DNA of 64,000 nucleotides, taken from Patescibacteria group bacterium (GTDB lineage: Bacteria > Patescibacteriota > Microgenomatia > UBA10105 > UBA927). This document shows, piece by piece, positions 6,110 to 23,700 of the stretch (within the stretch, counting starts at the first letter, position 1; the number at the start of each line of letters is the position of its first letter). Where the stretch lies: positions 78,451-142,450 of the forward strand of contig JBBTUH010000002.1 of NCBI GenBank assembly GCA_038063875.1, given 5' to 3'. Made by a program: the position numbers and the translations under genes. The notes beneath the pieces are model-generated. The model saw only the letters and a list, made by a program, of their open reading frames with translations. It made no database searches and was not told the origin of the DNA.

Positions 6110-6807
6110 GATGTGCTCACAGAATTCCAAAATCGATACCGTAAAAGCGTAAATACGGCAGCTACTCCATCTTTCCATGTCAACTTCTTGCCTTCGGAAA
6201 ATTTACGACCAAAATACGAAATAGGCACTTCGTATATCTGATAGCCACTTCGCAATACCTTCGCCGTAATTTCTGGTTCAAAATCAAATCGCTTGGCATC
6301 AATGTGTAGCCCTTTGAGAACTGATGCATCAAATACCTTATACCCTGTTTCCATGTCAGTAATATTTGTGTTGTAAAGAATATTGGTGATAAGTGTCACG
6401 AATTTATTACCCATCGCGTATACGAACATAGTAGATAAATGACCGCCCAAAAATCTAGAACCATATACCACATGAACGCGATCATTCTTAAGCGGTGCAA
6501 GAAGTATAGGATAATCAGCTGGGCTATACTCCAAGTCAGCATCTTGTATGAGAATGACATTCCCCGTGGCGTTTGAAATGCCCATAGTCACGGCAGACCC
6601 TTTTCCTTCATTTTTTTCTTTCAGAATGACTTTCACTCGTTTTGTCCATTTTTTAAGCACATTTCGTGTGCCATCTGTAGACCCATCATCGATGACAATA
6701 ATTTCCTTCTCCCATCCTGAAACCACAGCATGAACCACTCGATCAATAAGCTCATCAATAGTCGACACTTCGTTATATACCGGAATGATAATGGAAAGTT
6801 TTTTCAT
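6106..6807 (-). CDS. GT2-family glycosyltransferase, DPM1/GtrB-like putative polyprenyl-phosphate sugar synthase
   Basis: Motifs seen are LSIIIPVYNEVSTI, IDDGSTDGT, IQDADLEYSP and GSRF. These are characteristic of the dolichyl-P-mannose/glucose synthase clade. The protein is 233 aa with no obvious transmembrane segment. Confidence 0.7.
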   Translation of the reverse strand: MKKLSIIIPVYNEVSTIDELIDRVVHAVVSGWEKEIIVIDDGSTDGTRNVLKKWTKRVKVILKEKNEGKGSAVTMGISNATGNVILIQDADLEYSPADYPILLAPLKNDRVHVVYGSRFLGGHLSTMFVYAMGNKFVTLITNILYNTNITDMETGYKVFDASVLKGLHIDAKRFDFEPEITAKVLRSGYQIYEVPISYFGRKFSEGKKLTWKDGVAAVFTLLRYRFWNSVSTS

Positions 6808-8165
6808 GCGTTGAAAAAGGCCTTACCGTGGAGGATTAACCATGCCCAGAGCGGAATAAATTCCAAAGTTTTTCCATCTATCTTTTGTATAGCCGAATAA
6901 TTTTTCGTTAACACATGTCCTTTTTCCTTATTAAACTCCTGCAATCCTTCTACCATGCCCTGTGTTTCTCTCTCATGCGGCTGATCAGTGTATGAAACAT
7001 TATAAAAAGCCAACGCAGGATCCATAGTCACAAAATCTATCTCTTTCTTACCTTTCCAATAGTAAATCGCCTGCGATTGTTTTTTTAGCTCCATGTATAC
7101 TATATTTTCCGCACATTGCCCGATATCAGGTCGTAAAAGCGGCACGTTAAAATTTCGCAGTCCATTATCGACTACATACATCTTCCGAGCCCTTTGCACA
7201 TCCTGCGTCTCCTTCGTTTTATACGAATAATGCTTACTCTCAAAGAGTAAATATGCCCGCTGAAAATACTCGATGTAGGATTTGGTAGTCTCTAAAGAGA
7301 GTTTCTGCGGTCGAGATAAACTACTGTATGTATGCGTTTTCGTAAAATCAGACATAATCTGAAGTCCTAATACTTCTACTTCCTGCTGATTTCGAACACC
7401 ATTGGGCACCACAACGTCTCTGGAAACCGTATCTCTAAAATAATTTGATGCCAATGTCCGTTTGACATCTTCATCTTCGGTAAGCACTATTTCAGGATAC
7501 CCGCCTTCTTTCATATAATTCCCCAAGTGATGTAAAATTTTCGTTTGTTGGGAGAAATTAGCCTTGAGAATCGATGATATATTCGCTTGCCCTTCTATGG
7601 TAATTCCTTTTATGCGCAAATATTCATAAAAGTTAAAGGGGTAGACGTCTACTTGAACGTTTCTGCCGGTCAAAACTGTCGCCGACTCTGACTCAACCAA
7701 CGATCGACGTGATCCAGAAAGTATAAACTTAACAGGATCTTTCCGCTCATACTTACTGCTTATCCAACGATTGAAGTCTTTAATTCCCTGAATTTCATCC
7801 AAAAATATATAAACTTTCCCTTGCGGATTGTAAGTCTCCATATAATAGATAAAAATATCTTCCAAGAGTTTCCAGCCTTGTGTCAAATACTGCTGCACCA
7901 ATATATCCTCCAAAAACAAATACAAAACGTTTTTGGCAGGTATACCTTTCTTAACGATAAGATGCTCCATGAGTTGATGCATCAGCGTCGATTTCCCTGC
8001 ACGACGAACACCAGCAAGGATTAACACATGACGAATATCCAGAAGTTTTTTGAAGCGCTCAAGATACTTCTCTCGAGGCACGGTATGTATCCATTTACCT
8101 TTCAAGGGATCAGTAAAGTGAGGGTTCCATGTCGAAATTAACGTTTGGCACACTTCTCTATCCAT
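6804..8165 (-). CDS. AAA-type ATPase, DUF4143/COG1373-like
   Basis: It has a Walker A motif in LILAGVRRAGKST and a Walker B-like IFLDEIQ. The long C-terminal domain is typical of the archaeal/bacterial ATPase-plus-DUF4143 family. Confidence 0.6.
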   Translation of the reverse strand: MDREVCQTLISTWNPHFTDPLKGKWIHTVPREKYLERFKKLLDIRHVLILAGVRRAGKSTLMHQLMEHLIVKKGIPAKNVLYLFLEDILVQQYLTQGWKLLEDIFIYYMETYNPQGKVYIFLDEIQGIKDFNRWISSKYERKDPVKFILSGSRRSLVESESATVLTGRNVQVDVYPFNFYEYLRIKGITIEGQANISSILKANFSQQTKILHHLGNYMKEGGYPEIVLTEDEDVKRTLASNYFRDTVSRDVVVPNGVRNQQEVEVLGLQIMSDFTKTHTYSSLSRPQKLSLETTKSYIEYFQRAYLLFESKHYSYKTKETQDVQRARKMYVVDNGLRNFNVPLLRPDIGQCAENIVYMELKKQSQAIYYWKGKKEIDFVTMDPALAFYNVSYTDQPHERETQGMVEGLQEFNKEKGHVLTKNYSAIQKIDGKTLEFIPLWAWLILHGKAFFNA

Positions 8166-8233: not shown

Positions 8234-9292
8234 TTATATCGAAGGGTTTATTACGGTATTATACACGGCTATTGTCTCGTGAGCTACACGATCCCAGCTA
8301 AACTTGTTCGCCCACGCATGACCCTCAAGGATCAATTCCTCTCGTTTGTTAGATGATAAAGAAAACGCTTCAAGCATTTTTCGTGCAATACTTTCTGTAT
8401 CATTTGGATCACAAATAAGTGATGGCCCTGCAATTTCTTTCAAACTCCCACCATGCGTCGCAATCACCACCGTACCTGCAGACATCGCCTCAAGAACCGG
8501 CAATCCAAACCCCTCATAAAAGGAAGCAAGTACACACGTGCTTGAAAGTGAAAGAAGTGCTGGTAAATCATCATCCGATACTCGACCTACTCTCTCCACA
8601 GTTGACTCAAGCTGAAGCTCTTTTATTACACCATCTATGCGTTGTGCTTCTTGGGATTCATTCAAAAACGCATCTCCCACAAGAAACAACTTTTCGCCTG
8701 TCTTCAACATATCTTTATTCTTTAATAATTTCCAAGCGTTGAGAAGACCGAGAATGTTTTTATTCCAATTGATATCTCCTACATACACTATAAAACGTTT
8801 CGGGAGTGCATACTTTTTTATCACACGCTTTGTTGCTTCATTAGTAATTGATTGAGAAAACGTGAGTGGAGGTGCTAATGGAACCACATCAACGGTATCC
8901 TTTCTTCGTAATATTTTTATAATGTCGTTTTTGGAACTGACACTATCGGTGATAATCCTTGTGGCTCGTGATATATTCCACTTTTGTATTTGCCATTTGA
9001 CTTCACCCCGCACGCCTGCAGGAAAATGCTCGGGAAAGACAATCGGAATGAGATCGTGTACTGTCACTACAAACGGTTTGTGGAGAAAGAATGGAAGCGT
9101 TATGAAAAATGGATCAAAACTTGTAAAATGAACTAGGTCTACTTCTTGTGGAATATCACCAATTGAAACAAACTCACAGATGGAAACACTATTATTTCTT
9201 TTCAGAGCCGCGATCAACTCTCTTGTGTAGACGCCCACTCCCCGTGTTTTGTGACCGCTTGAGAGTGGCTGTGTGCTTATTGCGATTCTCAT
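8234..9292 (-). CDS. GT4-family glycosyltransferase
   Basis: The C-terminal motif is FYEGFGLPVLEAMSAGTVVIATHGGSLKEIAG (E-X7-E). Confidence 0.75.
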   Translation of the reverse strand: MRIAISTQPLSSGHKTRGVGVYTRELIAALKRNNSVSICEFVSIGDIPQEVDLVHFTSFDPFFITLPFFLHKPFVVTVHDLIPIVFPEHFPAGVRGEVKWQIQKWNISRATRIITDSVSSKNDIIKILRRKDTVDVVPLAPPLTFSQSITNEATKRVIKKYALPKRFIVYVGDINWNKNILGLLNAWKLLKNKDMLKTGEKLFLVGDAFLNESQEAQRIDGVIKELQLESTVERVGRVSDDDLPALLSLSSTCVLASFYEGFGLPVLEAMSAGTVVIATHGGSLKEIAGPSLICDPNDTESIARKMLEAFSLSSNKREELILEGHAWANKFSWDRVAHETIAVYNTVINPSI

Positions 9293-9433
9293 AAAGTACT
9301 TTCAAGTATACCAAAATGTCAGAAGCGAGAACAAACGTACAAAGCGTATTCCACATTTAAACTTTGAATTATATAACTTTTCAATACTCCAATAATTTAT
9401 TATGCTCTTTTTTACCTGTAGCATCATTAAATC

Positions 9434-10255
9434 CTAAGTAGTCAACTTTACACCGGTCGAGAGTTCATTGACTACTTTCTTCAATGTTGATTTCACTCGT
9501 TTATATGCACTATCTCCTTTCCACCACGGCGGGAGCAAAGAAAAAGGCAATTGAGGATCATCTTTAAGAATTGCTAAATACGAAACGATTGAAAATTGAT
9601 CACCATCACCTTGATCATGCATCCATGTCACATAACGATCATTCAGTTCCTCTAGTTTGTAAACACGAACAATCATCGCCCGCACGTCCTCTTCCCCAAT
9701 TGATCCATCTTTTCCCATATCAGAAACAATAATATTTCCTTTCAATCCATGTTGTTCAACAAAACCACGAAGTGTATCAATTGGGTTATATGGAGTGATC
9801 CATACCGATTCCTGCAACAAGCCGCATCCAATGACTCTCAAATATTCACGAAGTAAATAACGATCACTACTTTTCTTTTCTGGTATATCGTATGTCACAA
9901 GGTACATCCGTCCGTCCCATACTCGATTTTCGTCGTAATGAGGAAGTATTGCTTCTAACCGCCTTTTTCCTTCAATAGTTATCTCTGGTAATGCACCACG
10001 CCTGATGATCTTTATCCATCCTCGTTTTCTTGCCGTTTGTATGGCATTTTTAAAAACTTCATAGTTTACTTGATCAAGAAACTTATCTGCGCTACGTCTT
10101 GCTCGCCACAATTGCCCATACTGTGATTGAGGCACGCCCATTGAAGCCATATACATCGTAATCCATAATCCTAAATCTACTGAATACGCAAATACCCCTT
10201 CTGCAACCTGAAGTGCTGCCCGACTCAATTTCCTCATTCCTTGTTTTCTACCCAT
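9434..10255 (-). CDS. PaaX-family-like transcriptional regulator (putative)
   Basis: The segment GKRRLEAI...WDGRMYLVTYDIPEKKSSDRYLLREYLRVIGCGLLQESVWITP resembles the PaaX core, whose consensus is GRRRLEA...WDG.W.LV...E..R..LR..L...GFG.L...VW..P. The gene is flanked by two copies of a palindromic element (see findings). Confidence 0.5.
   Translation of the reverse strand: MGRKQGMRKLSRAALQVAEGVFAYSVDLGLWITMYMASMGVPQSQYGQLWRARRSADKFLDQVNYEVFKNAIQTARKRGWIKIIRRGALPEITIEGKRRLEAILPHYDENRVWDGRMYLVTYDIPEKKSSDRYLLREYLRVIGCGLLQESVWITPYNPIDTLRGFVEQHGLKGNIIVSDMGKDGSIGEEDVRAMIVRVYKLEELNDRYVTWMHDQGDGDQFSIVSYLAILKDDPQLPFSLLPPWWKGDSAYKRVKSTLKKVVNELSTGVKLTT
9436..9477. promoter_or_regulatory. Palindromic element, copy 1. 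It has 10-bp inverted arms AAGTAGTCAA/TTGACTACTT and a 22-nt spacer containing CCGGTCG. It overlaps the 3' end of the PaaX-like gene.
   Basis: Read directly from the sequence: aagtagtcaactttacaccggtcgagagttcattgactactt. It may be an operator, a terminator-like hairpin or a repeat element. Confidence 0.5.
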
Positions 10256-10284
10256 GTATCCACTCTACATTCTCAATAATTAAA

Positions 10285-10320
10285 TAGTCAACTATTTTCC
10301 GGTCGGTGTTTAGTTGACTA
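10285..10320. promoter_or_regulatory. Palindromic element, copy 2. It has 9-bp arms TAGTCAACT/AGTTGACTA and an 18-nt spacer containing CCGGTCG. It lies 30 bp upstream of the start of the PaaX-like gene.
   Basis: Read directly from the sequence: atagtcaactattttccggtcggtgtttagttgactact. It has the same core as copy 1 and is a candidate operator in the promoter region of the regulator gene. Confidence 0.5.
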
Positions 10321-10390
10321 CTTATAAAATACTCCTATACTATATTTTTTACCAATTATTTATTACTGTACTTTGGTCATAAATATTTTA

Positions 10391-10411
10391 CTGTACGATA
10401 TTTTCGTACAG
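10391..10411 (-). terminator. Candidate intrinsic-terminator-like hairpin, weak
   Basis: It has a perfect 8-bp stem CTGTACGA/TCGTACAG and a 5-nt loop. It lies about 80 bp downstream of the stop of gene 10490..12082. The trailing sequence is A/T-rich but is not a clean U-tract. Confidence 0.3.
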
Positions 10412-10489
10412 TTGTTTCAAATTAATCACTAGCATACAAAAGAGTGAATAAACTATCAACAAGTATAATCTCTAAGCACACCTCGCACT

Positions 10490-12082
10490 CTATGTACGTT
10501 TAAAAGTAGATTTATGCGCACTTCGATTATCATAAAGTGCTTTGCATATACCGAAAGCTAACAAAGAGAACAAACTGAGCAACGATATGCTATCTGCTAA
10601 AAGTCTAAGTGGAGTCTCTTCAAATCTCACGCGCAACGTATGCTCGCCGCTTGGCATATTCACATGGATAATACCGTTAGGTTGATAAGAAATAGGAGTT
10701 TCTTTCCCATCAACGTACGCTTTCCACCCTGCAAAATAAAGAATTTGTGCAGCTATAGTGCTCTCTTTTTTCGCTTGTACGTTCAAGGTATACGAGAGTG
10801 GCGCTTCTTTCTCTACCTGTATAGTCATATCTTCAGCGTTTGCTTGAAAACGTTTAGTAAATCGATCTTTTTTCCATCCGGTATAGATTGTCGTGAAAGA
10901 GTTCCCCAGTGAAGACGTACCGTCTGTAAATTCTCGCCGAGAAAGATAATGCGCGTCATCCCTTTTTTCATACGTCACCGGCTTCATATAGGAAAAACTT
11001 ACGGTAAACGCCAATAAAGAAAGCCCCACCATAATCCAACGCGACAGCACAGTGGTCAAAAGTGCTGAAAGATATCCCACAGCAATCATAGGAACCATCA
11101 ATAATCTCCATGGATATTGAATATTAGCCATTAAGGGAACGTATCGCCATAGTTGCAACGAGTACTCTGTCATACCAAATATAGCTATCACAACGACACA
11201 AAACACAGGTAAAATATTTTTCCGCAATTCTCTTTTTCGTACTGCGATAAAAAAACTGATACATACGATAAGAAGTGGCACGATGCCGATTTGATAGGAC
11301 ATCTCATCAGCGCTTATTCCTACGCCAGAGAATCCCGTTCCCCATGACGGCAATAGGAGTTGAAAAAGATCTGGAAAATGATCCATATATGAAACGCTAT
11401 TTAACCCCACCATAAAACGACTCTCAACGAGTGCTGGCAGCCAAAAATACGTTGCTAACCCAATTCCTGTAGCGATTGAGAAGATGTTGCCTCGTTTGCG
11501 ATACCACGTATACAAAAAAATAATTGGAATAAATATGAACGCTGTAATATTGTGACTTACTATAATACCGGCTATCCCTATTGCTACACCAAAGGAAATA
11601 CCGTATTCTAACGCTGCAAACGTTAACAATACAAAAGAAAGCGCCCACACCTCGCCTACTGACCCACGCACGTATATATCGACAAACCAATACGGCACGA
11701 GAGAACAAACAATTGTCCCGATCATAGCTGCTCTGTCACCAAATACTCTCTTGAGCCACAAAAAACACCAGAATACCGCAGTCAAGTATCCTGCGGCGAG
11801 GGTGAGTTTCACACTGTCCACAAAGCTCACACCAAAAACATGAAAAAAACTCCCTATATAATTAGGAAACGGATAATGAAAAAGAAAAAGAGGCAATCCA
11901 TATCCGCTATTTAAATCAGGAGCCCACCGTGGAAAAAGATACCCGTATGAGAGCATGGTATAAAACTGCCAGAAACGAATAATGTGATACTCACCATCGT
12001 GCGTTGGTATAAATCGTGCACCAAATAATGGAAGACTTGAGATTATTGCTATCGATAACGCAAATAAAAAATATTTTTTCAT
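10490..12082 (-). CDS. Large polytopic membrane protein, putative GT-C glycosyltransferase, resembling the PF10131 'PTPS-related' family
   Basis: The N-terminal motif is IPTHDGEYHIIRFWQFYTMLSYGYLFPRWAPDLNSGYGLPLFLFHYP, followed by many transmembrane segments and a C-terminal soluble domain. The start was set at the ATG at 12082 (MKKYFLF), which gives an ATGA overlap with the upstream gene. There are four paralogs in this window. Confidence 0.6.
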   Translation of the reverse strand: MKKYFLFALSIAIISSLPLFGARFIPTHDGEYHIIRFWQFYTMLSYGYLFPRWAPDLNSGYGLPLFLFHYPFPNYIGSFFHVFGVSFVDSVKLTLAAGYLTAVFWCFLWLKRVFGDRAAMIGTIVCSLVPYWFVDIYVRGSVGEVWALSFVLLTFAALEYGISFGVAIGIAGIIVSHNITAFIFIPIIFLYTWYRKRGNIFSIATGIGLATYFWLPALVESRFMVGLNSVSYMDHFPDLFQLLLPSWGTGFSGVGISADEMSYQIGIVPLLIVCISFFIAVRKRELRKNILPVFCVVVIAIFGMTEYSLQLWRYVPLMANIQYPWRLLMVPMIAVGYLSALLTTVLSRWIMVGLSLLAFTVSFSYMKPVTYEKRDDAHYLSRREFTDGTSSLGNSFTTIYTGWKKDRFTKRFQANAEDMTIQVEKEAPLSYTLNVQAKKESTIAAQILYFAGWKAYVDGKETPISYQPNGIIHVNMPSGEHTLRVRFEETPLRLLADSISLLSLFSLLAFGICKALYDNRSAHKSTFKRT

Positions 12083-13688: not shown

Positions 13689-14461
13689 GTCAGGTTGCCA
13701 AATATAAACTTTTTGTATGCCATAGGAAAATGGAGGCTTGAGAATAGTGCAAACTGCAATCCTTGCCATCCATCGACGAACCCCTTGTGCCTTACATAAA
13801 TCATGAAAAAAGTAACAATCGGCTTTATAAAACAATATGCAAAAAGCAATGACATGGTCGATCTTTTGTATTTCTTTCGCAATTCTATAGCAGTAAGATT
13901 CGTATACGTATCCGCTTTTGCCCAATATTCTTCGAGGGTGTTGTTGGTGTAATGAAGCAAAGGTTCCTTCAGCGTCCCAATTTCTCCATCAATCTTGATC
14001 TGTTCATGAACATATTTACATGGCAACCTTCCCTTTCCGTTTTGAAACAAACGCACGAGATAATCAGGATATTGCCCACCTTTGGATAACCATCGACCAA
14101 CGAAAAAATTTTTACGTGGCATTTGATACCCAGCATTTGTGTTCTTTTTCTTTATTACTGATCGGATTTCTTCCGAAAGATCATTACCCACCACTTCATC
14201 AGCATCCAACTGCAAAATCCAATCACTCTTACACATCGCAATAGCTCTGTTTTTATTAATATGAAACATCACTGGATTATCTCGTTTCGAAATGACTGCA
14301 CCAAACTTTTTTGCAATCTCGAGAGTTCCGTCAGAAGACCCACCATCTACAAGCACTATCTCATCCACCCATGACCCGATAGATGCTAAACATGCGCCAA
14401 GTTTTATAGCCTCATTATATGTCGCAATAGCGACGGATATAGTTATTTTCTTTTTTGCCAT
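13685..14461 (-). CDS. GT2-family glycosyltransferase
   Basis: Motifs seen are ISVAIATYNEAIKLGACL and VLVDGGSSDGT. Confidence 0.75.
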   Translation of the reverse strand: MAKKKITISVAIATYNEAIKLGACLASIGSWVDEIVLVDGGSSDGTLEIAKKFGAVISKRDNPVMFHINKNRAIAMCKSDWILQLDADEVVGNDLSEEIRSVIKKKNTNAGYQMPRKNFFVGRWLSKGGQYPDYLVRLFQNGKGRLPCKYVHEQIKIDGEIGTLKEPLLHYTNNTLEEYWAKADTYTNLTAIELRKKYKRSTMSLLFAYCFIKPIVTFFMIYVRHKGFVDGWQGLQFALFSSLHFPMAYKKFIFGNLT

Positions 14462-16065
14462 AGTCCCATTGTAACAAGAAACCCTAAAAATATAATAATA
14501 CCGACTATCGAAATCCAGTTTGCAAACGTTCGAAGCTTGGTGTCAGAAAAAATGATTTCGACATCATGCACTCCTTCAGAAACTTCAAATGTTAACAGTC
14601 CCCGAAATTGAGGATTTTGAAACTCAACAGGAACGCGTGTTTTATCGACGAATACTTCCCAATTGGGGAAATAAAGTGTATTTTCTACCAGCGTTACAGA
14701 TGATAACGAAGTGATGCGATATGAATGATGTGTACTTGTTTGAGTACCGATAGTGATAGACACATCCTTTCCGCTAATCACCTCAATCGGCGCCTTTGCT
14801 GATCTTTCCATAAAGCGAATAGACCAAATCGGTGCACTTTCCCCTGTGTCCGTCGTTCCGTTATACACACCCGTAAAATTACTATCAGGCATACTGGTAT
14901 ATTCCTTTGCATGCCACATAGAAACACTTGAAACAATCGCTATAACAGACAAGAGCACCACCACGAGTGTTCTTTGGTGTTTACCAAGCGTTGCCACAAC
15001 CAACGCTGCGATAATAGGCACAATAAATGTCGTGACGTGTAAAAATCTCCATGGAAATTGAAACTTTTGCAGCAGCGTCACCGTTTTCCACACGGGTTCT
15101 GCCACTGATGTCATCAACAATAAAAACGCTACAACAGAAACAAGTATGCCGATGAGAAGAATTTTTGATGTTCTACCCATAAAACGCACGAAATATAATG
15201 CTGCCACCAAAACTACAATATGTGCAAACCCTAAAAACTTGGATATTTCGCTTGCGGTGCCATACGCCCATGTTGGATTGAAAAAATCCAAGAAGTTTAC
15301 AAATCTCGATGTAAACTCCCCCCTAGTGACGATGTCACGCAAGGTGTATTTACCCTCAATCAATGCAGGCAACCAAAAAAATGCAGATAAGACAAACCCG
15401 AAAATTAAGCCTGACAAAGATCTAAAAACAAATTCCCGTTTTCGTTTCGTTTGAAAAACCAAAAGATACACGGTAAACATTCCTATGATAGGAAGCATCA
15501 TCAAGCTGACTGCATTATGAGACAAAAGCAGTCCCACCATACTCAAAGCAATAAGAATGACAGACGATCGCCATAAGCCTAAAAGGATAAGCGGCAGAAA
15601 AATAAACGCAATATGTTCGCCAATTGCACCTCGTACATACATATCGACAAATCTATATGGGGCAAAACCGTATAGCACTGCCGCAAGTATTCCTGCTTGA
15701 ATCCCAAAAACCGTTGAGGCAAACAGGTACATCGAAAAAATGCTTGCAATAAATCCAAATGCAAAAACAAGTTTCACGCTATCAACAAAAGAAAATCCAA
15801 TCGCATGAAATGCTGACCCTATATATGAAGGTAATGGATATAAAAACATCAAAATAGGATGCCCGTATCCCCAATTAAGATTACCAGCCCACCGTGGAAT
15901 GATAATCCCCTCTGAAAGCGATTGATAAAAATTAGCAATTCTTGCGACATGATCTTTACCATCATGTGAAATTGGGAGTCCAACGCGTAACAAATCAAGG
16001 AGGGGCAATAGAGAAACAATGATAAGTACGAACCAGATAATCCAGCCTAAATGTAATTTTTTCAT
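14443..16065 (-). CDS. Large polytopic membrane protein, PF10131-like putative GT-C glycosyltransferase (paralog)
   Basis: The N-terminal motif is PISHDGKDHVARIANFYQSLSEGIIIPRWAGNLNWGYGHPILMFLYPLPSYIGSAFHAIGFSFVDSVKL, which is paralogous to gene 10490..12082. Confidence 0.6.
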   Translation of the reverse strand: MKKLHLGWIIWFVLIIVSLLPLLDLLRVGLPISHDGKDHVARIANFYQSLSEGIIIPRWAGNLNWGYGHPILMFLYPLPSYIGSAFHAIGFSFVDSVKLVFAFGFIASIFSMYLFASTVFGIQAGILAAVLYGFAPYRFVDMYVRGAIGEHIAFIFLPLILLGLWRSSVILIALSMVGLLLSHNAVSLMMLPIIGMFTVYLLVFQTKRKREFVFRSLSGLIFGFVLSAFFWLPALIEGKYTLRDIVTRGEFTSRFVNFLDFFNPTWAYGTASEISKFLGFAHIVVLVAALYFVRFMGRTSKILLIGILVSVVAFLLLMTSVAEPVWKTVTLLQKFQFPWRFLHVTTFIVPIIAALVVATLGKHQRTLVVVLLSVIAIVSSVSMWHAKEYTSMPDSNFTGVYNGTTDTGESAPIWSIRFMERSAKAPIEVISGKDVSITIGTQTSTHHSYRITSLSSVTLVENTLYFPNWEVFVDKTRVPVEFQNPQFRGLLTFEVSEGVHDVEIIFSDTKLRTFANWISIVGIIIFLGFLVTMGLWQKRK

Positions 16066-17702
16066 AATGTGAATACAATAATTGCCTCTTTTCCATCAAG
16101 ATTTCTAAAGACATTTAATACCCGTTTATGTACTGGGGCATCTTTACTATCGGCAATATAAATTGTGTCCGATCGCAAGACTTCTTTAGACCAATCTATA
16201 ACGCGAAATCTCACATTTTCAATCATATGAGGTTTGTCGTATCCGCCCGACACACTGCCACCGAGTGCTTGATAACGCACAGGATCAAACGCTGTATAAA
16301 AAAGATAAAACATATACGATTGGTATAAATTTCCGCTATTGGCAAACTCTATTTTTTTGTAGGAAGCTTTCGGGTTGGTAACAAAAGACATCGTATCTTC
16401 CATGGCATATTGAAACGCATCAGATTGTGTGGTGGGAAAAATCACAAAATATCCTTTCCAAAACTCCAGCAAACTCCATAAGACAACAAGTATCAGGATC
16501 ATCCATCTTCCCCACGTACGTAGCTTTTTTGACACATACCATAGCTCGAGCCATCCAATACCACCAATCAGGGATAATGCAGGCAACAACGTATATGCTC
16601 GCATCGCATGAGGAGCTTGCGTGGTAATCGAAGCGGGTAATGGCGCGGACAATACCCACGCCAATAACAAAAGAATGATGCGTATATCGATATGACTCAG
16701 TACTAATATATACCCTACCCCCACCACAATACCGATAATCTCCCAAGGATACAAAAGACCCATGTATGGTACTTTATGTGCTTCACGTGCACTACCAGTG
16801 AATAACCACGATGGAGAAAAATGAGAAAAATAATTTTGTAGAAATACACGTGCCATAACCACTTTTCTGTGGTTTACCAGCTGTGGGAAGGTATTATTTT
16901 GGCTTTTTGCTTTTTGAAAATTATCAAACGCCTGCACAAATACTGGCGCGTCTACGGAAAACGCACTTGTTCCCTTAAACCTACTAAGTCCTGCCCCAGT
17001 CACCGTGACGTATACAGCTGGCAGAGCTATCAAGCTAAATAAGGCGATACTGAAAAATAAAATTTTCCACTCCTTCAACAACTGCTTCCCATACAAAAGT
17101 CCTGCGCTTAAAAGTAACACGGGCACAATAAGTTTTTGACTCTGATATCCATGAAGGGAAAGTCCAAACCACGCAGCCATAAAGACAAGTGCCCATGGCT
17201 TTTTTTCTAAAATAAAAACGAAAAGCATGTATATACCGGCAATTGTAAGCGTCAACCCCAAATTCGCCTCGTGCCCAAGTCGAGAAATATATATATGCCA
17301 TGGTGAAATAGTCAGTAACAATGCTGACACTTCACCCAAATAGTGTAGCCTCGTGTTAAACCGCGATAGAAGTTTGCCAATCCGATACAACATCCATACC
17401 GCAAGAAGCGACAAAATGATGGACGGAAATCGAACTGCCAGAGATGAGAGTCCCATAAATTTTACGAATGGGATGACCAAATAGACATACAGTGCCGGCC
17501 TCCAGTCGTCATACGCTCGAAGAAGTAAGGGTAATCTATATCCATATTCGTCTGTACCAGTATAGAGTATAGAATACGCGTTATATCCTATTGAAACTTC
17601 ATCAAGCGATGGTGCTGGCGGCACAATTGCTAATGCATAAAGTCGCAAAAATGCGGCAAGAAGAAAAATGATCGCGAATGCTAAAAAATCACGCTTAAAC
17701 AT
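16062..17702 (-). CDS. PMT/ArnT-type (GT39-like) GT-C membrane glycosyltransferase
   Basis: The N-terminal motif is LAAFLRLYALAIVPPAPSLDEVSIGYNAYSILYTGTDEYGYRLPL. This is a DE motif in the first extracytoplasmic loop, followed by many transmembrane segments and a C-terminal soluble domain. It is the first of three tandem paralogs. Confidence 0.65.
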   Translation of the reverse strand: MFKRDFLAFAIIFLLAAFLRLYALAIVPPAPSLDEVSIGYNAYSILYTGTDEYGYRLPLLLRAYDDWRPALYVYLVIPFVKFMGLSSLAVRFPSIILSLLAVWMLYRIGKLLSRFNTRLHYLGEVSALLLTISPWHIYISRLGHEANLGLTLTIAGIYMLFVFILEKKPWALVFMAAWFGLSLHGYQSQKLIVPVLLLSAGLLYGKQLLKEWKILFFSIALFSLIALPAVYVTVTGAGLSRFKGTSAFSVDAPVFVQAFDNFQKAKSQNNTFPQLVNHRKVVMARVFLQNYFSHFSPSWLFTGSAREAHKVPYMGLLYPWEIIGIVVGVGYILVLSHIDIRIILLLLAWVLSAPLPASITTQAPHAMRAYTLLPALSLIGGIGWLELWYVSKKLRTWGRWMILILVVLWSLLEFWKGYFVIFPTTQSDAFQYAMEDTMSFVTNPKASYKKIEFANSGNLYQSYMFYLFYTAFDPVRYQALGGSVSGGYDKPHMIENVRFRVIDWSKEVLRSDTIYIADSKDAPVHKRVLNVFRNLDGKEAIIVFTL

Positions 17703-17707
17703 ACTTG

Positions 17708-19333
17708 TTATTCTGCTATTCGTATCGCTTCAAACCCGTCCAGATATGAAATTCTGTATATGGGGTCTGTATTAATTTCTCGCGGTGTTCCCACATACAA
17801 AATTGAACCGTCGTGCAATTCATTGGCCCAGTTAATAGGCCGAAATTCATATATATCAAATTTATTTCTCACCTCAGCAAATCCTCCTGATGCTGTGCCC
17901 CCTTCTTTTAGATACATAATGGGATCATATTTCATAAAAAATAAATAAAACATATGTGGCTGCTCAAGCTTGGTTGACACGACTATTTTTTTATATTTAT
18001 TCTTGTGGGACTCGGTATACTCCACGGCTTGTTTGTATCCATACTGCCAAAACTTGGAATACTCGCGATTTGTGTGCCCGAAATACATGTCAACGTAATA
18101 GCCAATGGTACAAACAATGAATAGACTATAAAGACCGACTCCAAACAAAACAAACAAACGCAAAGGTATTTTTATTTTTTTTGTTGCATCGATAAAATGT
18201 TTGTATATACCAAAAAGTCCAAATGCCGTGAATATCTGCACCAGTGGCAATGTGACAAGTGTTCGAATAGCATGCGGAGTCTCTGACGTTGGAGAAGCGG
18301 CAATTGGAGCGATAAGAAGCCATCCAAATAAGAATGTTTTAAGCTTGCCATCTCGTTTTGCGACCACAACCATACCGTAAAGGAGAAACGGCAACTCCCA
18401 AAGATACATAAGTCCCACATCTGGAGCATGATGCCTGTCATTGTCCCCAGTCAAAAACAACCACTTCAAAGAAAAATGTGACAAATAGCCGTCTGCCATG
18501 GTCTTTATATACACCAAACGTCTATTTTCCCAAATAACGCCGAGATAATCGCCTTGTTTGATATCAGTTTCCAGCCTCGATACGCTTCGAGCAAGTAATC
18601 CTGTTTGATCAGACAAGGTACTAGTGCCTTGTAACCTCGTCAGACCATCTTTTCCAAACACAACAGGTATCAATGGTCCCACGATGATAAACCCAACCAC
18701 GAGCGATGTGAGCAAAAACTTCCATTGAGAAAAAAACTCTTTCCGGTATATGAAAAACAATAAAAGCATCAAAAGCGGCAAAAATACACGTTCACTATGA
18801 TATGCATAAAATCCAAACCCTAAGATACCTGCCGCAAGCGGCATCCATCTACCGTTTTGCAATGATTTCAAAAGGAAATATATGCCCCATATATTGAGTG
18901 TGACACCTATATTTGCTTCAAATGCTATACGAGAAAACTGTATGTGCCATGGAGAAATAGCCAAAAGAAACATAGCTATAAACGATAAGCTAATATTATT
19001 TGTAAGCGCGCGTGTCAAGAAATACGTTCCCAACACACCAAGCGTTCCGATAACAGCCGCCGGCACACGCACGGCAAAGGTAGAGAGACCAAAAAGTTTT
19101 ATCGATGGTATCGTAAGATACGCATAAAGAGGCGGCTTATAATCATCATATGATCGAAGTGTAAGCGGCCATCGAGTACCATATTCGTCCTTGCCAGTTT
19201 TAAGCAGTGAATATGCGTTGTATCCTAATGCCGCTTCATCCCAGTCAGGACTCGGTGGCACTTCACCTAAGCGCCAAAATCGCAAAAATGCAGCAAGAAA
19301 AAGAATGGTAAATAATAATGCTAATTTTTTCAT
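17708..19333 (-). CDS. PMT/ArnT-type (GT39-like) GT-C membrane glycosyltransferase (tandem paralog)
   Basis: The N-terminal motif is LAAFLRFWRLGEVPPSPDWDEAALGYNAYSLLKTGKDEYGTRWPL. It is co-linear with its neighbours. Confidence 0.65.
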   Translation of the reverse strand: MKKLALLFTILFLAAFLRFWRLGEVPPSPDWDEAALGYNAYSLLKTGKDEYGTRWPLTLRSYDDYKPPLYAYLTIPSIKLFGLSTFAVRVPAAVIGTLGVLGTYFLTRALTNNISLSFIAMFLLAISPWHIQFSRIAFEANIGVTLNIWGIYFLLKSLQNGRWMPLAAGILGFGFYAYHSERVFLPLLMLLLFFIYRKEFFSQWKFLLTSLVVGFIIVGPLIPVVFGKDGLTRLQGTSTLSDQTGLLARSVSRLETDIKQGDYLGVIWENRRLVYIKTMADGYLSHFSLKWLFLTGDNDRHHAPDVGLMYLWELPFLLYGMVVVAKRDGKLKTFLFGWLLIAPIAASPTSETPHAIRTLVTLPLVQIFTAFGLFGIYKHFIDATKKIKIPLRLFVLFGVGLYSLFIVCTIGYYVDMYFGHTNREYSKFWQYGYKQAVEYTESHKNKYKKIVVSTKLEQPHMFYLFFMKYDPIMYLKEGGTASGGFAEVRNKFDIYEFRPINWANELHDGSILYVGTPREINTDPIYRISYLDGFEAIRIAE

Positions 19334-20934
19334 AACTCAAATATCACAAGAACAGTAGTACCGTTTAATAACGATATATTTTTCAACACTCGAGCGTGTG
19401 TCGGTACTTGGTTAGGTGGCAGTATATATAATACACGGCCTATATACGTCTCATCGAAATGTCTGACGAAGCGATAGTTACCAAATCTATACACATTATA
19501 AAAACCTTCAGCGTCAAACGAGGCATTATTGGTTTGTAGAAAAAATGAAAGGTCATATGTACCATAAAATAACGTATAAATATATGGTCTGCCTATGCTC
19601 TCTGTAAGTACAATCACATCGTAAGTATCCTTGACGCTCTCGGCGTACTGAATTGCTTCTCTGTATCCATACTGCCATTCACCAGAATATTCTTTCGTAT
19701 AATGCACTGTATATGTATGCCAAAAATACCCAAAATTAAACAGAACAAAAAAACATATGACGCTTGCGACTATAATTTGCCATATTTTTTTTCTGATAAC
19801 ACTAAGAAATGACACCATGCCGTAGGCTGTAATCATGATCCATACTGGGAGCCCATTTTCTACACGTAATGCATGTGGCGTCTCTCGAGCCACTGCTGCG
19901 GGTGCAACGGATGAGAGTAACCACCACAACAAAAGAAAGCCAATGGAGGGCATACGAGCAAAAAGTATCAACCAACCATACAATATAAATGGCGCAGTAA
20001 CCAAGAGTAATTGACCAGTATCCTGTATCGAAAACTTTGGATTACCATCGCCCTTTATAAAAAGAAATCGAGGCTCAAGGTTATCAAAAAAATGAATCAA
20101 ATATTCTCGTCCGTATCCTATACGTCTATTATGAACGATCTTTGACCACAACGAATTCCCATCTGACAGACTTCTTGCGTTCGCGGTAAGTATGACTTTA
20201 AGATCTGTGAATATACTCACCTCTTGAAATCGAAGTCTGGCATTGCTTGAGAGAAGGTGGGGCATAAGCGGAATGAGTACAATGACCGCAATGACTATCC
20301 CACGAAATACCGCCGACGTACCCTTTCTATAGGATCGCCATGAAAACAAAACTGTTCCAAGTGCTATAAGCGGACCTGCGTAGCGAGCGGAATTAAACGT
20401 ATACATTCCAGCTATAAATGGCAACAATGCATACAACAATACTGTCGTATTGCTTCGTGATACCAAAAGAAGATATACCCCAAGAGTAATAAAAAATGTT
20501 GCAATGTTTGCTTCAAAGCCTGCCCGAGAAAGCATGATGTGCCAAGGCGAAATAGATAAAAGAAATGCGCTTAAAAGAGCAAGTCTTTGATTGGAGAACA
20601 GTTCTCTCACAAGAAAATATAAGAGCAAAACGGTAAGTGATCCAAAAATCGCTGACGGCAATCGGACAGCCATATCTGATAATCCAAATACTGCGACAAA
20701 TGGTACGGTAAGATACACAGGAAGTGTCGGTTTATAATCACCAAATGCAGAAAAAGCACCCAATGGGAAGCGCGTACCATGCTCATCCGCGCCATGGGTC
20801 AAAATTGTATACGCGTTATACCCTATAGACACCTCATCCCAAGAGAGTGAAGGAGGGTTCGTGCTCAGGTGAGAGAAGCGAAGCCACATTCCCAACGCAA
20901 AAATAAGAATGAGTATGGTACGCGTTACTTTCAT
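19330..20934 (-). CDS. PMT/ArnT-type (GT39-like) GT-C membrane glycosyltransferase (tandem paralog)
   Basis: The N-terminal motif is PPSLSWDEVSIGYNAYTILTHGADEHGTRFPL. The C-terminal segment GEWQYGYREAIQYAE is shared with the other paralogs. Confidence 0.65.
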   Translation of the reverse strand: MKVTRTILILIFALGMWLRFSHLSTNPPSLSWDEVSIGYNAYTILTHGADEHGTRFPLGAFSAFGDYKPTLPVYLTVPFVAVFGLSDMAVRLPSAIFGSLTVLLLYFLVRELFSNQRLALLSAFLLSISPWHIMLSRAGFEANIATFFITLGVYLLLVSRSNTTVLLYALLPFIAGMYTFNSARYAGPLIALGTVLFSWRSYRKGTSAVFRGIVIAVIVLIPLMPHLLSSNARLRFQEVSIFTDLKVILTANARSLSDGNSLWSKIVHNRRIGYGREYLIHFFDNLEPRFLFIKGDGNPKFSIQDTGQLLLVTAPFILYGWLILFARMPSIGFLLLWWLLSSVAPAAVARETPHALRVENGLPVWIMITAYGMVSFLSVIRKKIWQIIVASVICFFVLFNFGYFWHTYTVHYTKEYSGEWQYGYREAIQYAESVKDTYDVIVLTESIGRPYIYTLFYGTYDLSFFLQTNNASFDAEGFYNVYRFGNYRFVRHFDETYIGRVLYILPPNQVPTHARVLKNISLLNGTTVLVIFEL

Positions 20935-22220
20935 AGATGTTCTGTATGTATCTCATCCATAAACAGTATCCCTGCTACGAGAAAAACAAGCGAAATATAT
21001 CCGACATGACTATTGTTAAAGTATCTACTCATATACCAAAATACCGTTAGAAACGTACCGTATGAAAATAAAAGCGTAGAAATAGCGGGTTTTAGCCATA
21101 ACCACCGCAAGAGTATGAAAAGTAATGGGAATCCGAATATAAGCTGGTAAAGATAAAATGGGTATTGCGCATGTATATCTTTGATAACACCTGCGTTATA
21201 AAGCACCATACTCAAGCCATACCCTGATACAGGGTAGCTCCCGACTGTGCCGCCAGTAAGATACAAAACAACACTATCTATAAACGCTTTTGCATCCCAC
21301 CAGAGAAATGGCGCAGAGAGTAAAAACGTTGTTGCTAAGAGCACGCTAAGGGACATCCATAATTTTGCTTTATATTTGCCATATGTGACGAACATATACG
21401 TAAGATAAAATGGCACCATTATCCAAATCGTTTGTTTACTCATAATGGAGAGACCAAAAACAAACGCCGCGAGTACAGGCTTTTTTACTGACAAGATATA
21501 TAACGATAACACTAGCCAAAAAAATGCAAAAACGTCACTTCTGCCCTCGAGAAAATAATTAAATACAGACGGCGAAAGTGCTACAAGAATTACTGCAAAT
21601 CGCTTGAGATTTCTATTCTTCACCCAATTCCAAAGAATAATTTGCAATCCTAACATACAAAACAACAACGCCATACGCGCATCAAAAAATCCAAATACTT
21701 TCACTCCTACTACATAAAATCCAAAGGGAAACAAAAGATACCACGGCGGCATCACAAAATGATATAAAGCAGGATTGATAGCTTTCGGATTATCGATCTC
21801 ACCATAGTTAAATGACTCAACAGGCGTGCCAAAGTACGTCTCCTTATACGGATTTCTTCCTTGCAAAAGATATCGAAGTGCTGCCTCTTCCTGAAGAATA
21901 ATATCATGTACTCCCCACACGGGTGCTACGCGATATCGATCAACCATCGCAGTGATAGAGGTACCAATAACAACTATGATCAAAACAATCAAGATGAGTA
22001 TGTCTCGAGCTCTCTCTATTAGCGCATTGGTTTTTACAAAAATCATAGATCTATGCGCAAGTAACACATTTAACACTAATACCAGAAACAACAACCCAAA
22101 CAGCCAATAGGGTGTACCATCAATCGGAAGGATGCGGTATTGCATCACAACAGGGATGGAGAGTGCAAAAAGAAGAACTGCATCTATAATTGGTGGCATA
22201 ATAGTTCTATTGTATCCCAA
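20931..22220 (-). CDS. Polytopic membrane protein of about 429 aa, putative membrane glycosyltransferase
   Basis: It is hydrophobic throughout. The segment NYFLEGRSDVFAFFWLVLSLYIL aligns with the ..HND.. segment of genes 12079..13179 and 47690..48772. Confidence 0.4.
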   Translation of the reverse strand: MGYNRTIMPPIIDAVLLFALSIPVVMQYRILPIDGTPYWLFGLLFLVLVLNVLLAHRSMIFVKTNALIERARDILILIVLIIVVIGTSITAMVDRYRVAPVWGVHDIILQEEAALRYLLQGRNPYKETYFGTPVESFNYGEIDNPKAINPALYHFVMPPWYLLFPFGFYVVGVKVFGFFDARMALLFCMLGLQIILWNWVKNRNLKRFAVILVALSPSVFNYFLEGRSDVFAFFWLVLSLYILSVKKPVLAAFVFGLSIMSKQTIWIMVPFYLTYMFVTYGKYKAKLWMSLSVLLATTFLLSAPFLWWDAKAFIDSVVLYLTGGTVGSYPVSGYGLSMVLYNAGVIKDIHAQYPFYLYQLIFGFPLLFILLRWLWLKPAISTLLFSYGTFLTVFWYMSRYFNNSHVGYISLVFLVAGILFMDEIHTEHL

Positions 22221-23700
22221 ACAACACTATAACATCGTCAATTTTTACTACACGCGTCTTATACTTGTAAAGATCTACTATCGGATAGTCCCCTTTACAA
22301 TGATCTTCATTGCAAAATGTTTGTATCTTGTCTCCATGATCAATAAAAGGACATACGTTGGACTCGCATACAAGCACAATGTGATTATCACTGCCTGTTA
22401 TTTTCTCGGCGTTGATTCGCGCCATCTTAAATCCTGCACGATAATGCAAATCAGAAAACGACGGTGATGCTGCCAAGCCGAAGCTAAATGCTTCATTCCC
22501 CAATTCCTTTTTCACGACATCTACCACCGCACGCACACGACCAATATCATTGCGAGGCGGTGTCGTGTACACAAGACCAACACTTCGATATACGCTTATT
22601 GCGCATAATACAAAAAGCCCAATATATACAAATGGTTTTATAGATTGTCGAGCTCCTATGACTTCTATCCAGTGTCCGATGACTATATATGCTGTCGGAG
22701 TCAAAAAATATAAATAATGATCGTACACAACGCCTTTGTACAGTGAGAGTGCACCGACCCCGCAAACAAATGATAAAAACATAAGTATCGAAAAAACATC
22801 TCTTTTAAGAAGTACCCAAAGCGTCGTTAAAAATATTATACTCATCGCACCAATGGGAATACCTAACGACACCGGCGATACGCGACCCATGACACGATTG
22901 GCATAATCAATAAAATTAAACACTATTTGTCGTTTCCCCATGGGTAATCCAGTCGGCTGAAGAAACTGCGTAATCACACTTCCCAAATTTTCAAAATTAT
23001 GAGCCAATTCGTAATAAAGAAATGGTAAAATCATAATGACAAATGTCAAACCCCACACGCCTATTATGCGTATCAGAATAAACCAACGCGGCCGATGTAT
23101 ATACCAAAAAATAAAAATTACAACACCGGAAAGCGGCACGAACAATAAATTTGGATAATGAAGCTGTACAAGAATGCCCGTTGATAGTGAAAGAAGCACG
23201 CTTCCCAAAAGCCACTTCTTTGTACGAAACAGCACCGCGACCCCAAGGATAAACATCATCGCAAAAACCGAAACCAAATTAGGCTCCCAAAGAAATCGAT
23301 CTGAAGCGACACCCATCGGGTTAAAAGCCCAAAGCATCGTCAAAAAAATTGCCACTACGCTCGTAAACAACAACCGAAACGTCAAAAATGCAACAACTAT
23401 TCCTACAAGTCCGTAAAATACGGTAGCATACGCACCCGATACCAAATCAAATCTAGTCATGATAAGAAACGGCGCTATCAAAAAATAATACGCAGGTCCT
23501 AAATACTGACCACTTAAAACTGTCGGACCCACCAATGGGATAGTTTTGGCTTGCCATGCATCATAGACATGAATAACTGTCCTCCCTTGGTCACCAAAAA
23601 ACTCCGTTGCTTCTTTAATATGTGATAATCGCAGTACGAACGAAACCAAAAGAAGTATTATAATAAGGATAGTTGATATACTCATCTGCCGCATACGCAT
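22207..23700 (-). CDS. ArnT/PMT_2-like GT-C membrane glycosyltransferase
   Basis: The N-terminal motif is EATEFFGDQGRTVIHVYDAWQ...GPTVLSGQYLGPAYYFLIAPF, paralogous to gene 49567..51126 (FLGDEGRD...GPTASVGGFFLGPMYYYFMMPF). Its ATG at 23700..23698 overlaps the divergent plus-strand start codon. Confidence 0.55.
   Translation of the reverse strand: MRMRQMSISTILIIILLLVSFVLRLSHIKEATEFFGDQGRTVIHVYDAWQAKTIPLVGPTVLSGQYLGPAYYFLIAPFLIMTRFDLVSGAYATVFYGLVGIVVAFLTFRLLFTSVVAIFLTMLWAFNPMGVASDRFLWEPNLVSVFAMMFILGVAVLFRTKKWLLGSVLLSLSTGILVQLHYPNLLFVPLSGVVIFIFWYIHRPRWFILIRIIGVWGLTFVIMILPFLYYELAHNFENLGSVITQFLQPTGLPMGKRQIVFNFIDYANRVMGRVSPVSLGIPIGAMSIIFLTTLWVLLKRDVFSILMFLSFVCGVGALSLYKGVVYDHYLYFLTPTAYIVIGHWIEVIGARQSIKPFVYIGLFVLCAISVYRSVGLVYTTPPRNDIGRVRAVVDVVKKELGNEAFSFGLAASPSFSDLHYRAGFKMARINAEKITGSDNHIVLVCESNVCPFIDHGDKIQTFCNEDHCKGDYPIVDLYKYKTRVVKIDDVIVLFGIQ

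Follow-up and report, generated by a model that had tools for sequence, protein, structure and literature searches.

Why does a regulator-like gene stand in the middle of a glycosylation operon, and what are the two palindromes on either side of it for? These questions arise from a 64-kb stretch of DNA (the window) from an uncultivated groundwater Patescibacteria bacterium, in which an open reading frame (ORF) of 273 amino acids (aa), at 9434..10255 on the minus strand, lies between a YfhO-like gene and a glycosyltransferase gene (GT4) in a tightly packed, co-directional array. The Patescibacteria, or Candidate Phyla Radiation, are uncultivated, and to our knowledge no experimentally defined pair of transcription factor and operator is known for them. 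PaaX, the protein that the ORF resembles, is the phenylacetyl-CoA-responsive repressor of the paa catabolic genes in Escherichia coli and Pseudomonas. Literature text searches found no papers linking PaaX with Patescibacteria, the Candidate Phyla Radiation or Cas2. We lean towards the reading that the two palindromes, here called A (upstream of the gene) and B (at its 3' end), are cognate sites of the dimeric PaaX-fold protein encoded between them, and we consider it probable from the sequence comparisons described below. A would then be an autorepressor promoter-operator and B an auxiliary site, inherited with the gene as a self-contained block that has been relocated.

Two palindromes bracketing a PaaX-fold gene

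A repeat search of the window recovered a single direct-repeat family, with copies at 9435-9477 and 10281-10323 (43 nt, 74% identical, 846 bp from start to start). The two copies bracket the ORF, and each is itself an inverted repeat. Palindrome A (10281..10324, no strand) has 14-nt arms at 10281-10294 and 10311-10324, which lie 16 nt apart and carry one mismatch (93% complementary). Its perfect inner arms of 8 nt, TAGTCAAC / GTTGACTA, are separated by a 20-nt spacer, and its core, CCGGTCG at 10299-10305, reads CGACCGG on the gene strand. Palindrome B (9435..9477, no strand) has 10-nt arms, AAGTAGTCAA / TTGACTACTT, at 9436-9445 and 9468-9477, with a 22-nt spacer between them and the core CCGGTCG at 9453-9459. 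Both the stop codon (9434-9436) and the stretch coding for the variable C-terminal tail overlap with this copy, within which the last 14 or so codons of the ORF lie. Direct reading and the repeat search thus confirmed both elements of a preliminary description of this DNA, which had called them near-identical. This holds for the arms and the CGACCG core, which agree between A and B, and fails for the two linkers of about 7 nt, which differ and bring overall identity down to the 74% given above.

The pair stands alone in the window. Within the 64 kb, CCGGTCG has two occurrences, one per element and both reading the same way, and the pattern TAGTCAAC-N14-26-GTTGACTA has an expectation of 0.00 (100 dinucleotide-preserving shuffles). 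No further family-type sites were found in the window with up to one mismatch per arm or in relaxed searches. The search for further copies thus returned the two elements in 64 kb and one solo site about 60 kb away, and no dispersed repeats in the roughly 76 kb sampled.

Copy A coincides with a promoter-like site of the gene (10262..10291, minus strand). A promoter scan placed its -35 box, TTGACT (10291-10286), within the arm of A nearer the gene; 18 nt separate it from the -10 box TAGAGT (10267-10262). The ATG at 10255 follows TAGAGT after 6 nt, which is a leaderless geometry. The regulator gene appears to be leaderless, with a putative operator covering its -35 box. Because the proximal arm of A is also the -35 of this promoter, a protein bound there would exclude RNA polymerase. 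Short inverted repeats (8-nt arms, 20 nt apart) that overlap a promoter correspond to the layout of PaaX-type operators, with a different sequence and spacing. The orthologous elements of the related loci L001 and L002 agree with copy A at 46 and 47 of 48 positions, respectively, and the whole shared block is 87% (L059, on the same contig as L001) and 81% (L002) identical at the nucleotide level. Identity of the element exceeds that of the block, which suggests that copy A is under purifying selection.

The best promoter-like match in the region faces the other way. It lies at 10314-10341 on the plus strand, with TTGACT in the distal arm of A, a 16-nt spacer and TATACT. In the related sequence L067 a Fic/MerR gene lies on this outward side of A, so the palindrome may once have been a bidirectional promoter-operator.

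The encoded protein was assessed by domain searches, structure prediction and homolog searches. Pfam PaaX_M (PF20803), a Cas2-like central domain, matched at 2.1e-14 (53.8 bits against a cutoff of 24). PaaX_C (PF08223) matched marginally (22.5 bits against a cutoff of 22, 1.5e-4) and over residues 225-260 only, and the Pfam matches of the ORF included none to a PaaX N-terminal domain model. For the AlphaFold2 (AF2) model, with a predicted local distance difference test score of 70, the best Foldseek match in the PDB was E. coli PaaX (8a39; 1.3e-8, 280 columns, full length), followed by 3kfw, 3l09 and then, for the central domain, Cas2 structures. A profile built from 40 family members retrieved E. 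coli PaaX (8a39) and Rv0674 (3kfw) in the PDB. The predicted layout comprises an N-terminal winged helix, a Cas2-like centre with the motif YDIPE, and a PaaX_C-like helical C-terminus. In a hidden Markov model alignment the recognition helix, the wing and a C-terminal DPxLPxxLLPxxWxG motif were common with PaaX, the DPqLPf.LLP.WW.G of the ORF aligning with E. coli PaaX. The PaaX equivalog model TIGR02277 (NCBIfam) scored 54.7 bits, far under its cutoff of 264.55. Since the fold is shared and the equivalog score falls far short, the product has a PaaX fold but is not a PaaX ortholog. The earlier call of a PaaX-like regulator therefore stands as to fold and the PaaX_M match, and does not extend to orthology with PaaX. 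No paa genes lie beside the ORF or its orthologs, whose neighbours are glycosyltransferases (window) and hisS/mraZ-dcw (orthologs).

Cas2 of CRISPR adaptation was also considered as an identity for this protein and rejected, given a TIGR01573 score of 18.3 (below its cutoff of 24.5) and no cas1 among the neighbours. The 'Cas2' labels that relatives carry in their source annotations are over-calls from the central domain. Residues Y122, D123 and E126 of YDIPE, a Cas2-type beta-1 motif, are nevertheless invariant in the clade, and the counterpart of this motif is LSEG in E. coli PaaX and VTSIG in Rv0674. The retained aspartate hints at chemistry beyond DNA binding. No Rfam family matched the window at gathering thresholds.

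Family-wide pairing and site grammar

Further support for a link between gene and palindromes comes from the wider family. We found 578 homologs, all named ones belonging to Patescibacteria (Gottesmanbacteria and others), often labelled Cas2 and with several per genome. Taking one genome per species left 55 loci, with up to four paralogs per metagenome-assembled genome (MAG), which span Gottesman-, Woese-, Blackburn-, Beckwith-, Shapiro- and Portnoybacteria and WWE3. Several of the records with Gottesmanbacteria-type genes and synteny (L001, L002, L008-L010 and others) are third-party annotation MAG entries titled 'uncultured Gammaproteobacteria', titles that are evidently wrong.

The layout seen in the window recurs across these loci: one long-spacer palindrome precedes the start codon by tens of bp and its partner lies at the stop codon or close to it, with arm sequences that match within a locus and differ between loci. 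The best ungapped 36-nt match between the upstream region and the 3' end reached at least 25/36 in about 40 of the 55 loci, compared with 20.0 +/- 1.4 (maximum 28, n=324) for mismatched locus pairs. Exactly two copies occur within +/-3 kb at nearly all loci, 820-925 bp apart and mostly 852-870.

A position-wise comparison of 34 clean A/B pairs, centred on their dyads, revealed which parts of the site are kept. In the core (positions 2-5 from the centre) identity between A and B and self-complementarity were both 79-100%, with the C at distance 3 conserved at 98%. By the same two measures the arms (11-20 from the centre) were mostly at 70-94% and the linkers at 20-73%. A and B of a single locus may carry different central R|Y dinucleotides (GT vs AC in L020, for example), so the element has no fixed polarity. 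A rough family consensus is TTGTCAAT-N6-(G)CGRYCG(C)-N6-ATTGACAA, with variant cores GCTATAGC, GCACGTGC and GCGGCCGC; L001 and L009 have arms in common and different cores. Identity over arms and core was 0.83 within a locus, compared with 0.49 between co-resident paralogs (maximum 0.71). This pattern of conservation fits selection for recognition by a putative locus-specific, dyad-symmetric binder and not homogenisation of the block.

The two copies of a locus are not equivalent with respect to promoters. A -35 box in the arm, a 16-19 nt spacer, TAnnnT and, 4-10 nt further on, an in-frame start were found at 19/34 A copies vs 2/34 B copies, and several more A copies show the same boxes by eye. 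Some B copies lack TTGAC and are still palindromic. With its overlap of the gene's own -35 box and a layout that co-varies across the family, the upstream site is well supported as a candidate autoregulatory promoter-operator, as the preliminary description had suggested.

Copy B has a less regular setting. The part of the ORF that lies in it is the variable end of the family alignment, and in more distant relatives B lies up to about 75 bp past the stop, so the overlap with coding sequence is incidental. Genes 3' of B are absent, convergent, or start 75-170 nt away, and across the family there is no consistent geometry of a downstream promoter at a fixed distance from B. This heterogeneity indicates that B belongs with the regulator gene and not with its neighbours.

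Taken together, these patterns suggest a mechanism in which a dimeric PaaX-fold protein of a Patescibacteria-specific clade would bind both A and B. Its site would be tripartite, with outer half-sites TAGTCAAC / GTTGACTA (centres about 29 bp apart) and a central CGRYCG core, and the linkers of about 7 nt between half-sites and core would be read weakly or not at all. The result would be autorepression of the regulator gene, of the kind that E. coli PaaX exerts at Px by steric hindrance (PMC9493321). Copy B may raise occupancy at A by looping of the gene of about 850 bp, and/or may block run-through transcription. The unit of A, gene and B would be inherited as a block, which here has moved from upstream of mraZ into a hotspot of the glycosylation operon.

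Several observations weigh against this reading. The protein is matched to its putative sites by co-variation and adjacency, and differences in the recognition helix that track arm types follow phylogeny too. About 15 of the 55 loci lack a clear pair, some of them being contig ends or having misplaced start coordinates. The role of copy B as an auxiliary operator, through looping and/or as a roadblock or insulator, is put forward as a proposal, and no helical phasing of the A-B distance (804-923 bp) was found, the remainders being scattered. The clade keeps a Cas2-type aspartate that is absent from E. coli PaaX and Rv0674. Finally, comparison with orthologs elsewhere puts the limits of the unit precisely at the palindromes, and the unit has changed place one or more times and left a solo site behind (see below), all of which would also fit recombination.

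Additional copies of the palindrome were observed at some loci. In L018 (1993-3804) a divergent gene of 260 aa and unassigned function has a third copy immediately after its stop, giving the order palindrome, gene (reverse), A, PaaX-like gene (forward), B. In L059 (10789-11185; also in L001 and L002) a third copy lies 355 bp 3' of copy B, and between the two are a TGCTATAAT promoter and a lineage-specific ORF of 61 aa. Lying past this small ORF, the third copy brackets it as well. Small ORFs beside orthologs (61, 74 and 91 aa) had no Pfam match and are confined to one lineage.

An exact-pattern scan of metagenome contigs for GTAGTCAA-N20-24-TTGACTAC returned at least 120 matches from unrelated environments; these are essentially chance matches and uninformative on the present genome. 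Only one of them, L185, had a family-type core. Its palindrome, GTAGTCAATCGCGTGACGACCGTCACCGAATTGACTAC at 2728-2765, lies on a contig of 51% GC with a weak PaaX_M-like match about 10 kb off, and may represent a member outside the low-GC clade.

An insertion hotspot, a relocated block and alternative explanations

Having observed the pairing of gene and sites across the family, we turn to the position of the gene among glycosylation genes. Orthologs at 88, 70, 61, 60 and 60% identity all sit at one conserved site (hisS...mraZ), where the order is Bac_transf, DUF4012, RecO, HisRS, a 155-aa protein, the gene, a variable small ORF and then mraZ-rsmH-ftsL-PBP-mur. Other paralog groups each have a conserved synteny of their own. 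In L068 the homologs of YfhO and GT4 overlap with nothing between them and no ATPase follows, so that the comparison of related genomes for presence or absence confirms the gene as an insert at this place. In L066 the YfhO/GT4 junction holds a DUF7387/HicA pair, and L002, from the same MAG, carries its PaaX-like gene beside hisS. The junction in L067 holds HicAB, a Fic/MerR gene and then, at the contig end, a copy-A palindrome of which 32 bases can be read, all matching the window, after a flank that shares 94% identity with the window's. An exact empty-site alignment of the immediate flanks of the unit was not found in L066.

The insert in the window, of about 1.2 kb, is bracketed by two junction copies of about 85 nt (YfhO-3'/GT4-5') found by local alignment, with a score of 34 against 10.9 +/- 1.9 (maximum 17) for shuffles. 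Copy 1 (10497..10580, minus strand) lies inside the 3' end of the YfhO-like gene and forms the left boundary of the insert. Copy 2 (9256..9340, minus strand) contains the start codon of GT4 at 9292 and a promoter-like motif, TTGTTC (9334-9329), an 18-nt spacer and TGgTATACT (9313-9305), 13 nt before the GT4 ATG. The same motif of about 45 nt recurs after HicA, with 97.6% identity in L066 and 92.7% in L067, and no palindrome adjoins it there; the copies in these relatives lie at L066 8094-8135 and L067 5277-5331 and 6359-6379. The junction behaves as a hotspot that gathers small modules (HicAB, Fic/MerR and the PaaX-like unit), with a junction copy after each, and the link of the regulator gene to glycosylation genes is an accident of insertion. 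The preliminary description had raised the possibility that the palindromes are the ends of an insertion. The gene does lie in an insert relative to L068, yet the insert is bounded by the duplicated junction and not by the palindromes, which nonetheless delimit the block shared with orthologs located elsewhere.

That block is well defined. Against L059, which carries the 88% ortholog, blastn aligned only 10324..9423 of the window (87%), from the outer edge of A to about 12 bp past B, and we take this A-gene-B segment (9423..10324, minus strand) as the heritable unit. In the window's own genome the hisS|mraZ site, on the same 996-kb contig and about 60 kb away, has no PaaX-like gene and instead holds a solo palindrome, AAAGTAGTCAAC-TTTTCTG-CGATCG-CTCCAAA-GTTGACTACTTT (L070 7226-7268; also in L069 and L071). 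It has the arms of the window's sites with a CGATCG core, is perfectly symmetric in arms and core, and lies about 365 bp 5' of mraZ. On its left it has (CT)n and then CTGTCAAG, similar to the left flank of copy A in L059 and L062 (with L062, 73% identity across 86 nt). The unit has thus been relocated, judging by these alignments, from its usual site 5' of the mraZ cluster into an insertion hotspot inside the glycosylation operon. The solo site matches copy B of L062, a more distant ortholog, at 42 of 44 positions, and its linkers are unlike those of the window's A and B; in L059, L001 and L002 the third copy, after the 61-aa ORF, occupies the equivalent place. Given linkers that resemble copy B of L062 and not the window's, deletion between direct repeats, a retained third operator and lateral replacement are all possible origins of the solo site. 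Its persistence would be compatible with a binder acting in trans. The (CT)n tract just 5' of copy A or the solo site at the ancestral locus varies in length, being a long microsatellite in L059 (9856-9891) and a short run in L070 (about 7190-7200).

Four other explanations were weighed against this background. Copy B could be an operator that places the GT4, ATPase, GT2 and flippase genes under this regulator, as had been proposed in the preliminary description. B does lie 142 bp ahead of the GT4 ATG, in the same direction as a long operon-like array of genes, and a protein bound there could roadblock read-through from YfhO. The orthologs (60-88% identity), however, adjoin dcw genes and not glycosylation genes, L068 has overlapping YfhO and GT4 genes and no regulator there, B has no promoter geometry, and the genes after B are heterogeneous across the family. 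The promoter-like motif of GT4 also lies about 120 bp from the centre of B and recurs after HicA in L066 and L067 without a neighbouring palindrome, which makes direct control of GT4 by B unlikely. We therefore abandon the proposed control of these genes: an operator for the cluster is distinctly unlikely, and any effect on it would be a by-product of insertion. The palindromes could instead mark the ends of a cassette that excises or moves, or be the sites at which it recombines, possibly through the Cas2-like domain of the encoded protein or a host recombinase, in which case recombination and not regulation would account for the match between A and B. This explanation draws on the sharp limits of the DNA shared with the 88% ortholog in wholly different contexts, on the absence of the gene from its own hisS|mraZ site with a palindrome kept there, as expected after deletion between direct repeats, and on the invariant YDIPE aspartate that E. 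coli PaaX lacks. The new location is moreover a hotspot with HicAB, Fic and a PDC-S01 ATPase in the window genome or its relatives, and extra palindrome copies bracket neighbouring small genes in L059 and L018. Against it stand paralog groups that are syntenically stable across genomes down to about 55-60% identity, a window with two copies only and no second paralog (tblastn), viral contigs without relatives, and a central dinucleotide whose orientation is not conserved between A and B, leaving no fixed polarity. The window insert, too, is delimited by the duplicated junction, the solo linkers mismatch those of the window's A and B, and the promoter is on A copies and not on B, an asymmetry better explained by regulation than by recombination. 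On this evidence the recombination-site explanation is unlikely. A stronger form, in which the unit is a self-bracketed selfish or domesticated cassette whose protein, with its Cas2 catalytic-type aspartate, cuts or recombines the palindromes or recruits a host recombinase, is more doubtful still, and would, if true, explain the palindrome-exact boundaries, the solo palindrome and the residence among toxin-antitoxin and defence modules.

The remaining two explanations leave the encoded protein out as a binder of double-stranded DNA. In one, the palindromes are bound by another host factor, or have no function and are homogenised from A to B by gene conversion. Many paralogs do share a loose consensus, TTGTCAAT-N6-CGRYCG-N6-ATTGACAA, that includes a -35-like TTGACA, so that a general factor or RNA polymerase could add to the conservation. 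Sites of co-resident paralogs differ, however, and those within a locus match; linkers diverge between A and B and arms and core are kept, the reverse of the pattern expected from block conversion; and the window has no family-type sites elsewhere. We regard this explanation as very unlikely. In the other, the elements are not protein sites on double-stranded DNA but hairpins of RNA or single-stranded DNA, which would serve as intrinsic terminators, stabilise 3' ends or be RNA targets for the Cas2-like domain. The sense strand folds better than shuffles (-17.7 and -17.3 kcal/mol; z = -3.4 and -4.9) and the antisense strand less well, and arm mismatches on the sense strand favour G:T (43) over A:C (18). 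The unpaired linkers show the same G:T excess (44 vs 25), so the bias is probably compositional, and AA and TT mismatches are common too. No T-run follows A or B, and a terminator scan was negative at both. With its -35 box inside an arm, copy A lies upstream of its own gene's transcription start, which likewise counts against a hairpin, and generic terminators need neither the match within a locus nor the difference between loci. The hairpin terminators once offered as an alternative for these elements are therefore set aside, their AT-rich stems and 16-22 nt loops coming without a T-run or a terminator call, and hairpins of any kind are in our view highly improbable.

Related systems and neighbouring features

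The reading of A and B as sites of the encoded PaaX-fold protein invites comparison with PaaX itself. Both proteins have the same three-domain fold and the DPxLPxxLLPxxWxG C-terminal motif, and both are associated with short inverted repeats set far apart: the E. coli site is TGATTC-N27-GAATCA, with inverted hexamers 27 bp apart (PMC9493321), compared with TAGTCAAC-N20-GTTGACTA here. Occlusion of the protein's own promoter is published for PaaX and predicted here. The two differ in sequence (about 19% identity only, under the equivalog cutoff) and in context, no paa genes being near the window ORF. The spacing of half-sites here is about 5 bp shorter and the CGRYCG core is an extra conserved feature. 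In the window clade the 3' end of the gene also has a conserved second cognate site, YDIPE is retained where E. coli PaaX has LSEG, and there are several paralogs per genome of about 1 Mb. What is new with respect to known PaaX biology is a Patescibacteria-specific, multi-paralog clade, candidate operators with a tripartite CGRYCG-core structure, a conserved second site that brackets the gene, and the retained Cas2-type aspartate.

Paired operators are familiar from other repressors. LacI (O1/O2), GalR (OE/OI) and DeoR combine a promoter operator with a second site hundreds of bp downstream, classically explained by looping and a raised local concentration of repressor. The locus described here is similar in having a putative primary operator at the promoter and a second cognate site hundreds of bp 3'. 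Here, however, the second site is at the stop codon of the repressor's own gene, so that the pair brackets the whole gene, and looping and oligomerisation are proposals. Type II toxin-antitoxin modules such as HicAB also form self-contained units that, like the window unit, are apparently autoregulated through a palindromic promoter operator; HicAB and Fic modules of relatives occupy the same hotspot, and the central domain of the window protein is related to the Cas2/VapD nuclease fold. Unlike such modules, the window unit is a single gene without a separate toxin partner, and most paralogs are syntenically stable. A gene flanked by palindromes that co-vary with the protein lineage further recalls tyrosine transposases associated with repetitive extragenic palindromes (RAYT/REP) and the IS200/IS605 elements. 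The window protein has no HUH/Y1 transposase fold, only three copies of the palindrome occur in the roughly 76 kb sampled, and the window sites look like dyad-symmetric double-stranded DNA with a GC core, not like tight hairpins. An insertion sequence, a miniature inverted-repeat transposable element (MITE) and a REP repeat were each rejected as identities of the element, in view of the lack of a transposase domain, the stable synteny of paralogs and the count of two copies in 64 kb plus one solo site. A candidate 19-nt flanking repeat was not adjacent on both sides.

The family offers dozens of natural protein/site pairs that diverge between co-resident paralogs and follow a clear tripartite grammar, with promoters that can be read from the sequence (a -35 box in the operator arm, a -10 box and a leaderless start). 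DNA recognition by the PaaX fold is thereby opened to testing, with the winged helix-turn-helix expected on the outer half-sites and, possibly, the Cas2-like dimer on the core. The same holds for the promoter architecture of Patescibacteria and for the question of what a conserved second operator does where a repressor's own gene ends. For bacteria without cultures, this amounts to a testable pairing of protein and DNA site. The results also correct the 'Cas2' annotation of many members and the view of this gene as a regulator of the glycosylation cluster.

Some neighbouring features of the window deserve mention. An unrelated second palindrome, ACTGTACGA-TATTT-TCGTACAGT, lies at 10390-10412 in the flank upstream of copy A, with a direct copy of TTACTGTAC nearby at 10364-10372. 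It is kept in L067 (94% over 155 bp) and partly in L066 (8364-8399), and could be another operator or a terminator. Beside GT4, an AAA_14/DUF4143 ATPase (6804-8165, minus strand) matches the PADLOC candidate defence family PDC-S01 at 6.9e-92. Being absent between GT4 and GT2 in L068, this ATPase looks like a second accessory insertion in the glycosylation operon. At 14443-23700 lie six tandem, co-directional paralogs of about 500-550 aa, which are PMT_2 / PTPS_related / YfhO-like membrane proteins and make up an unusually large array of putative glycosyltransferase-C-type enzymes.

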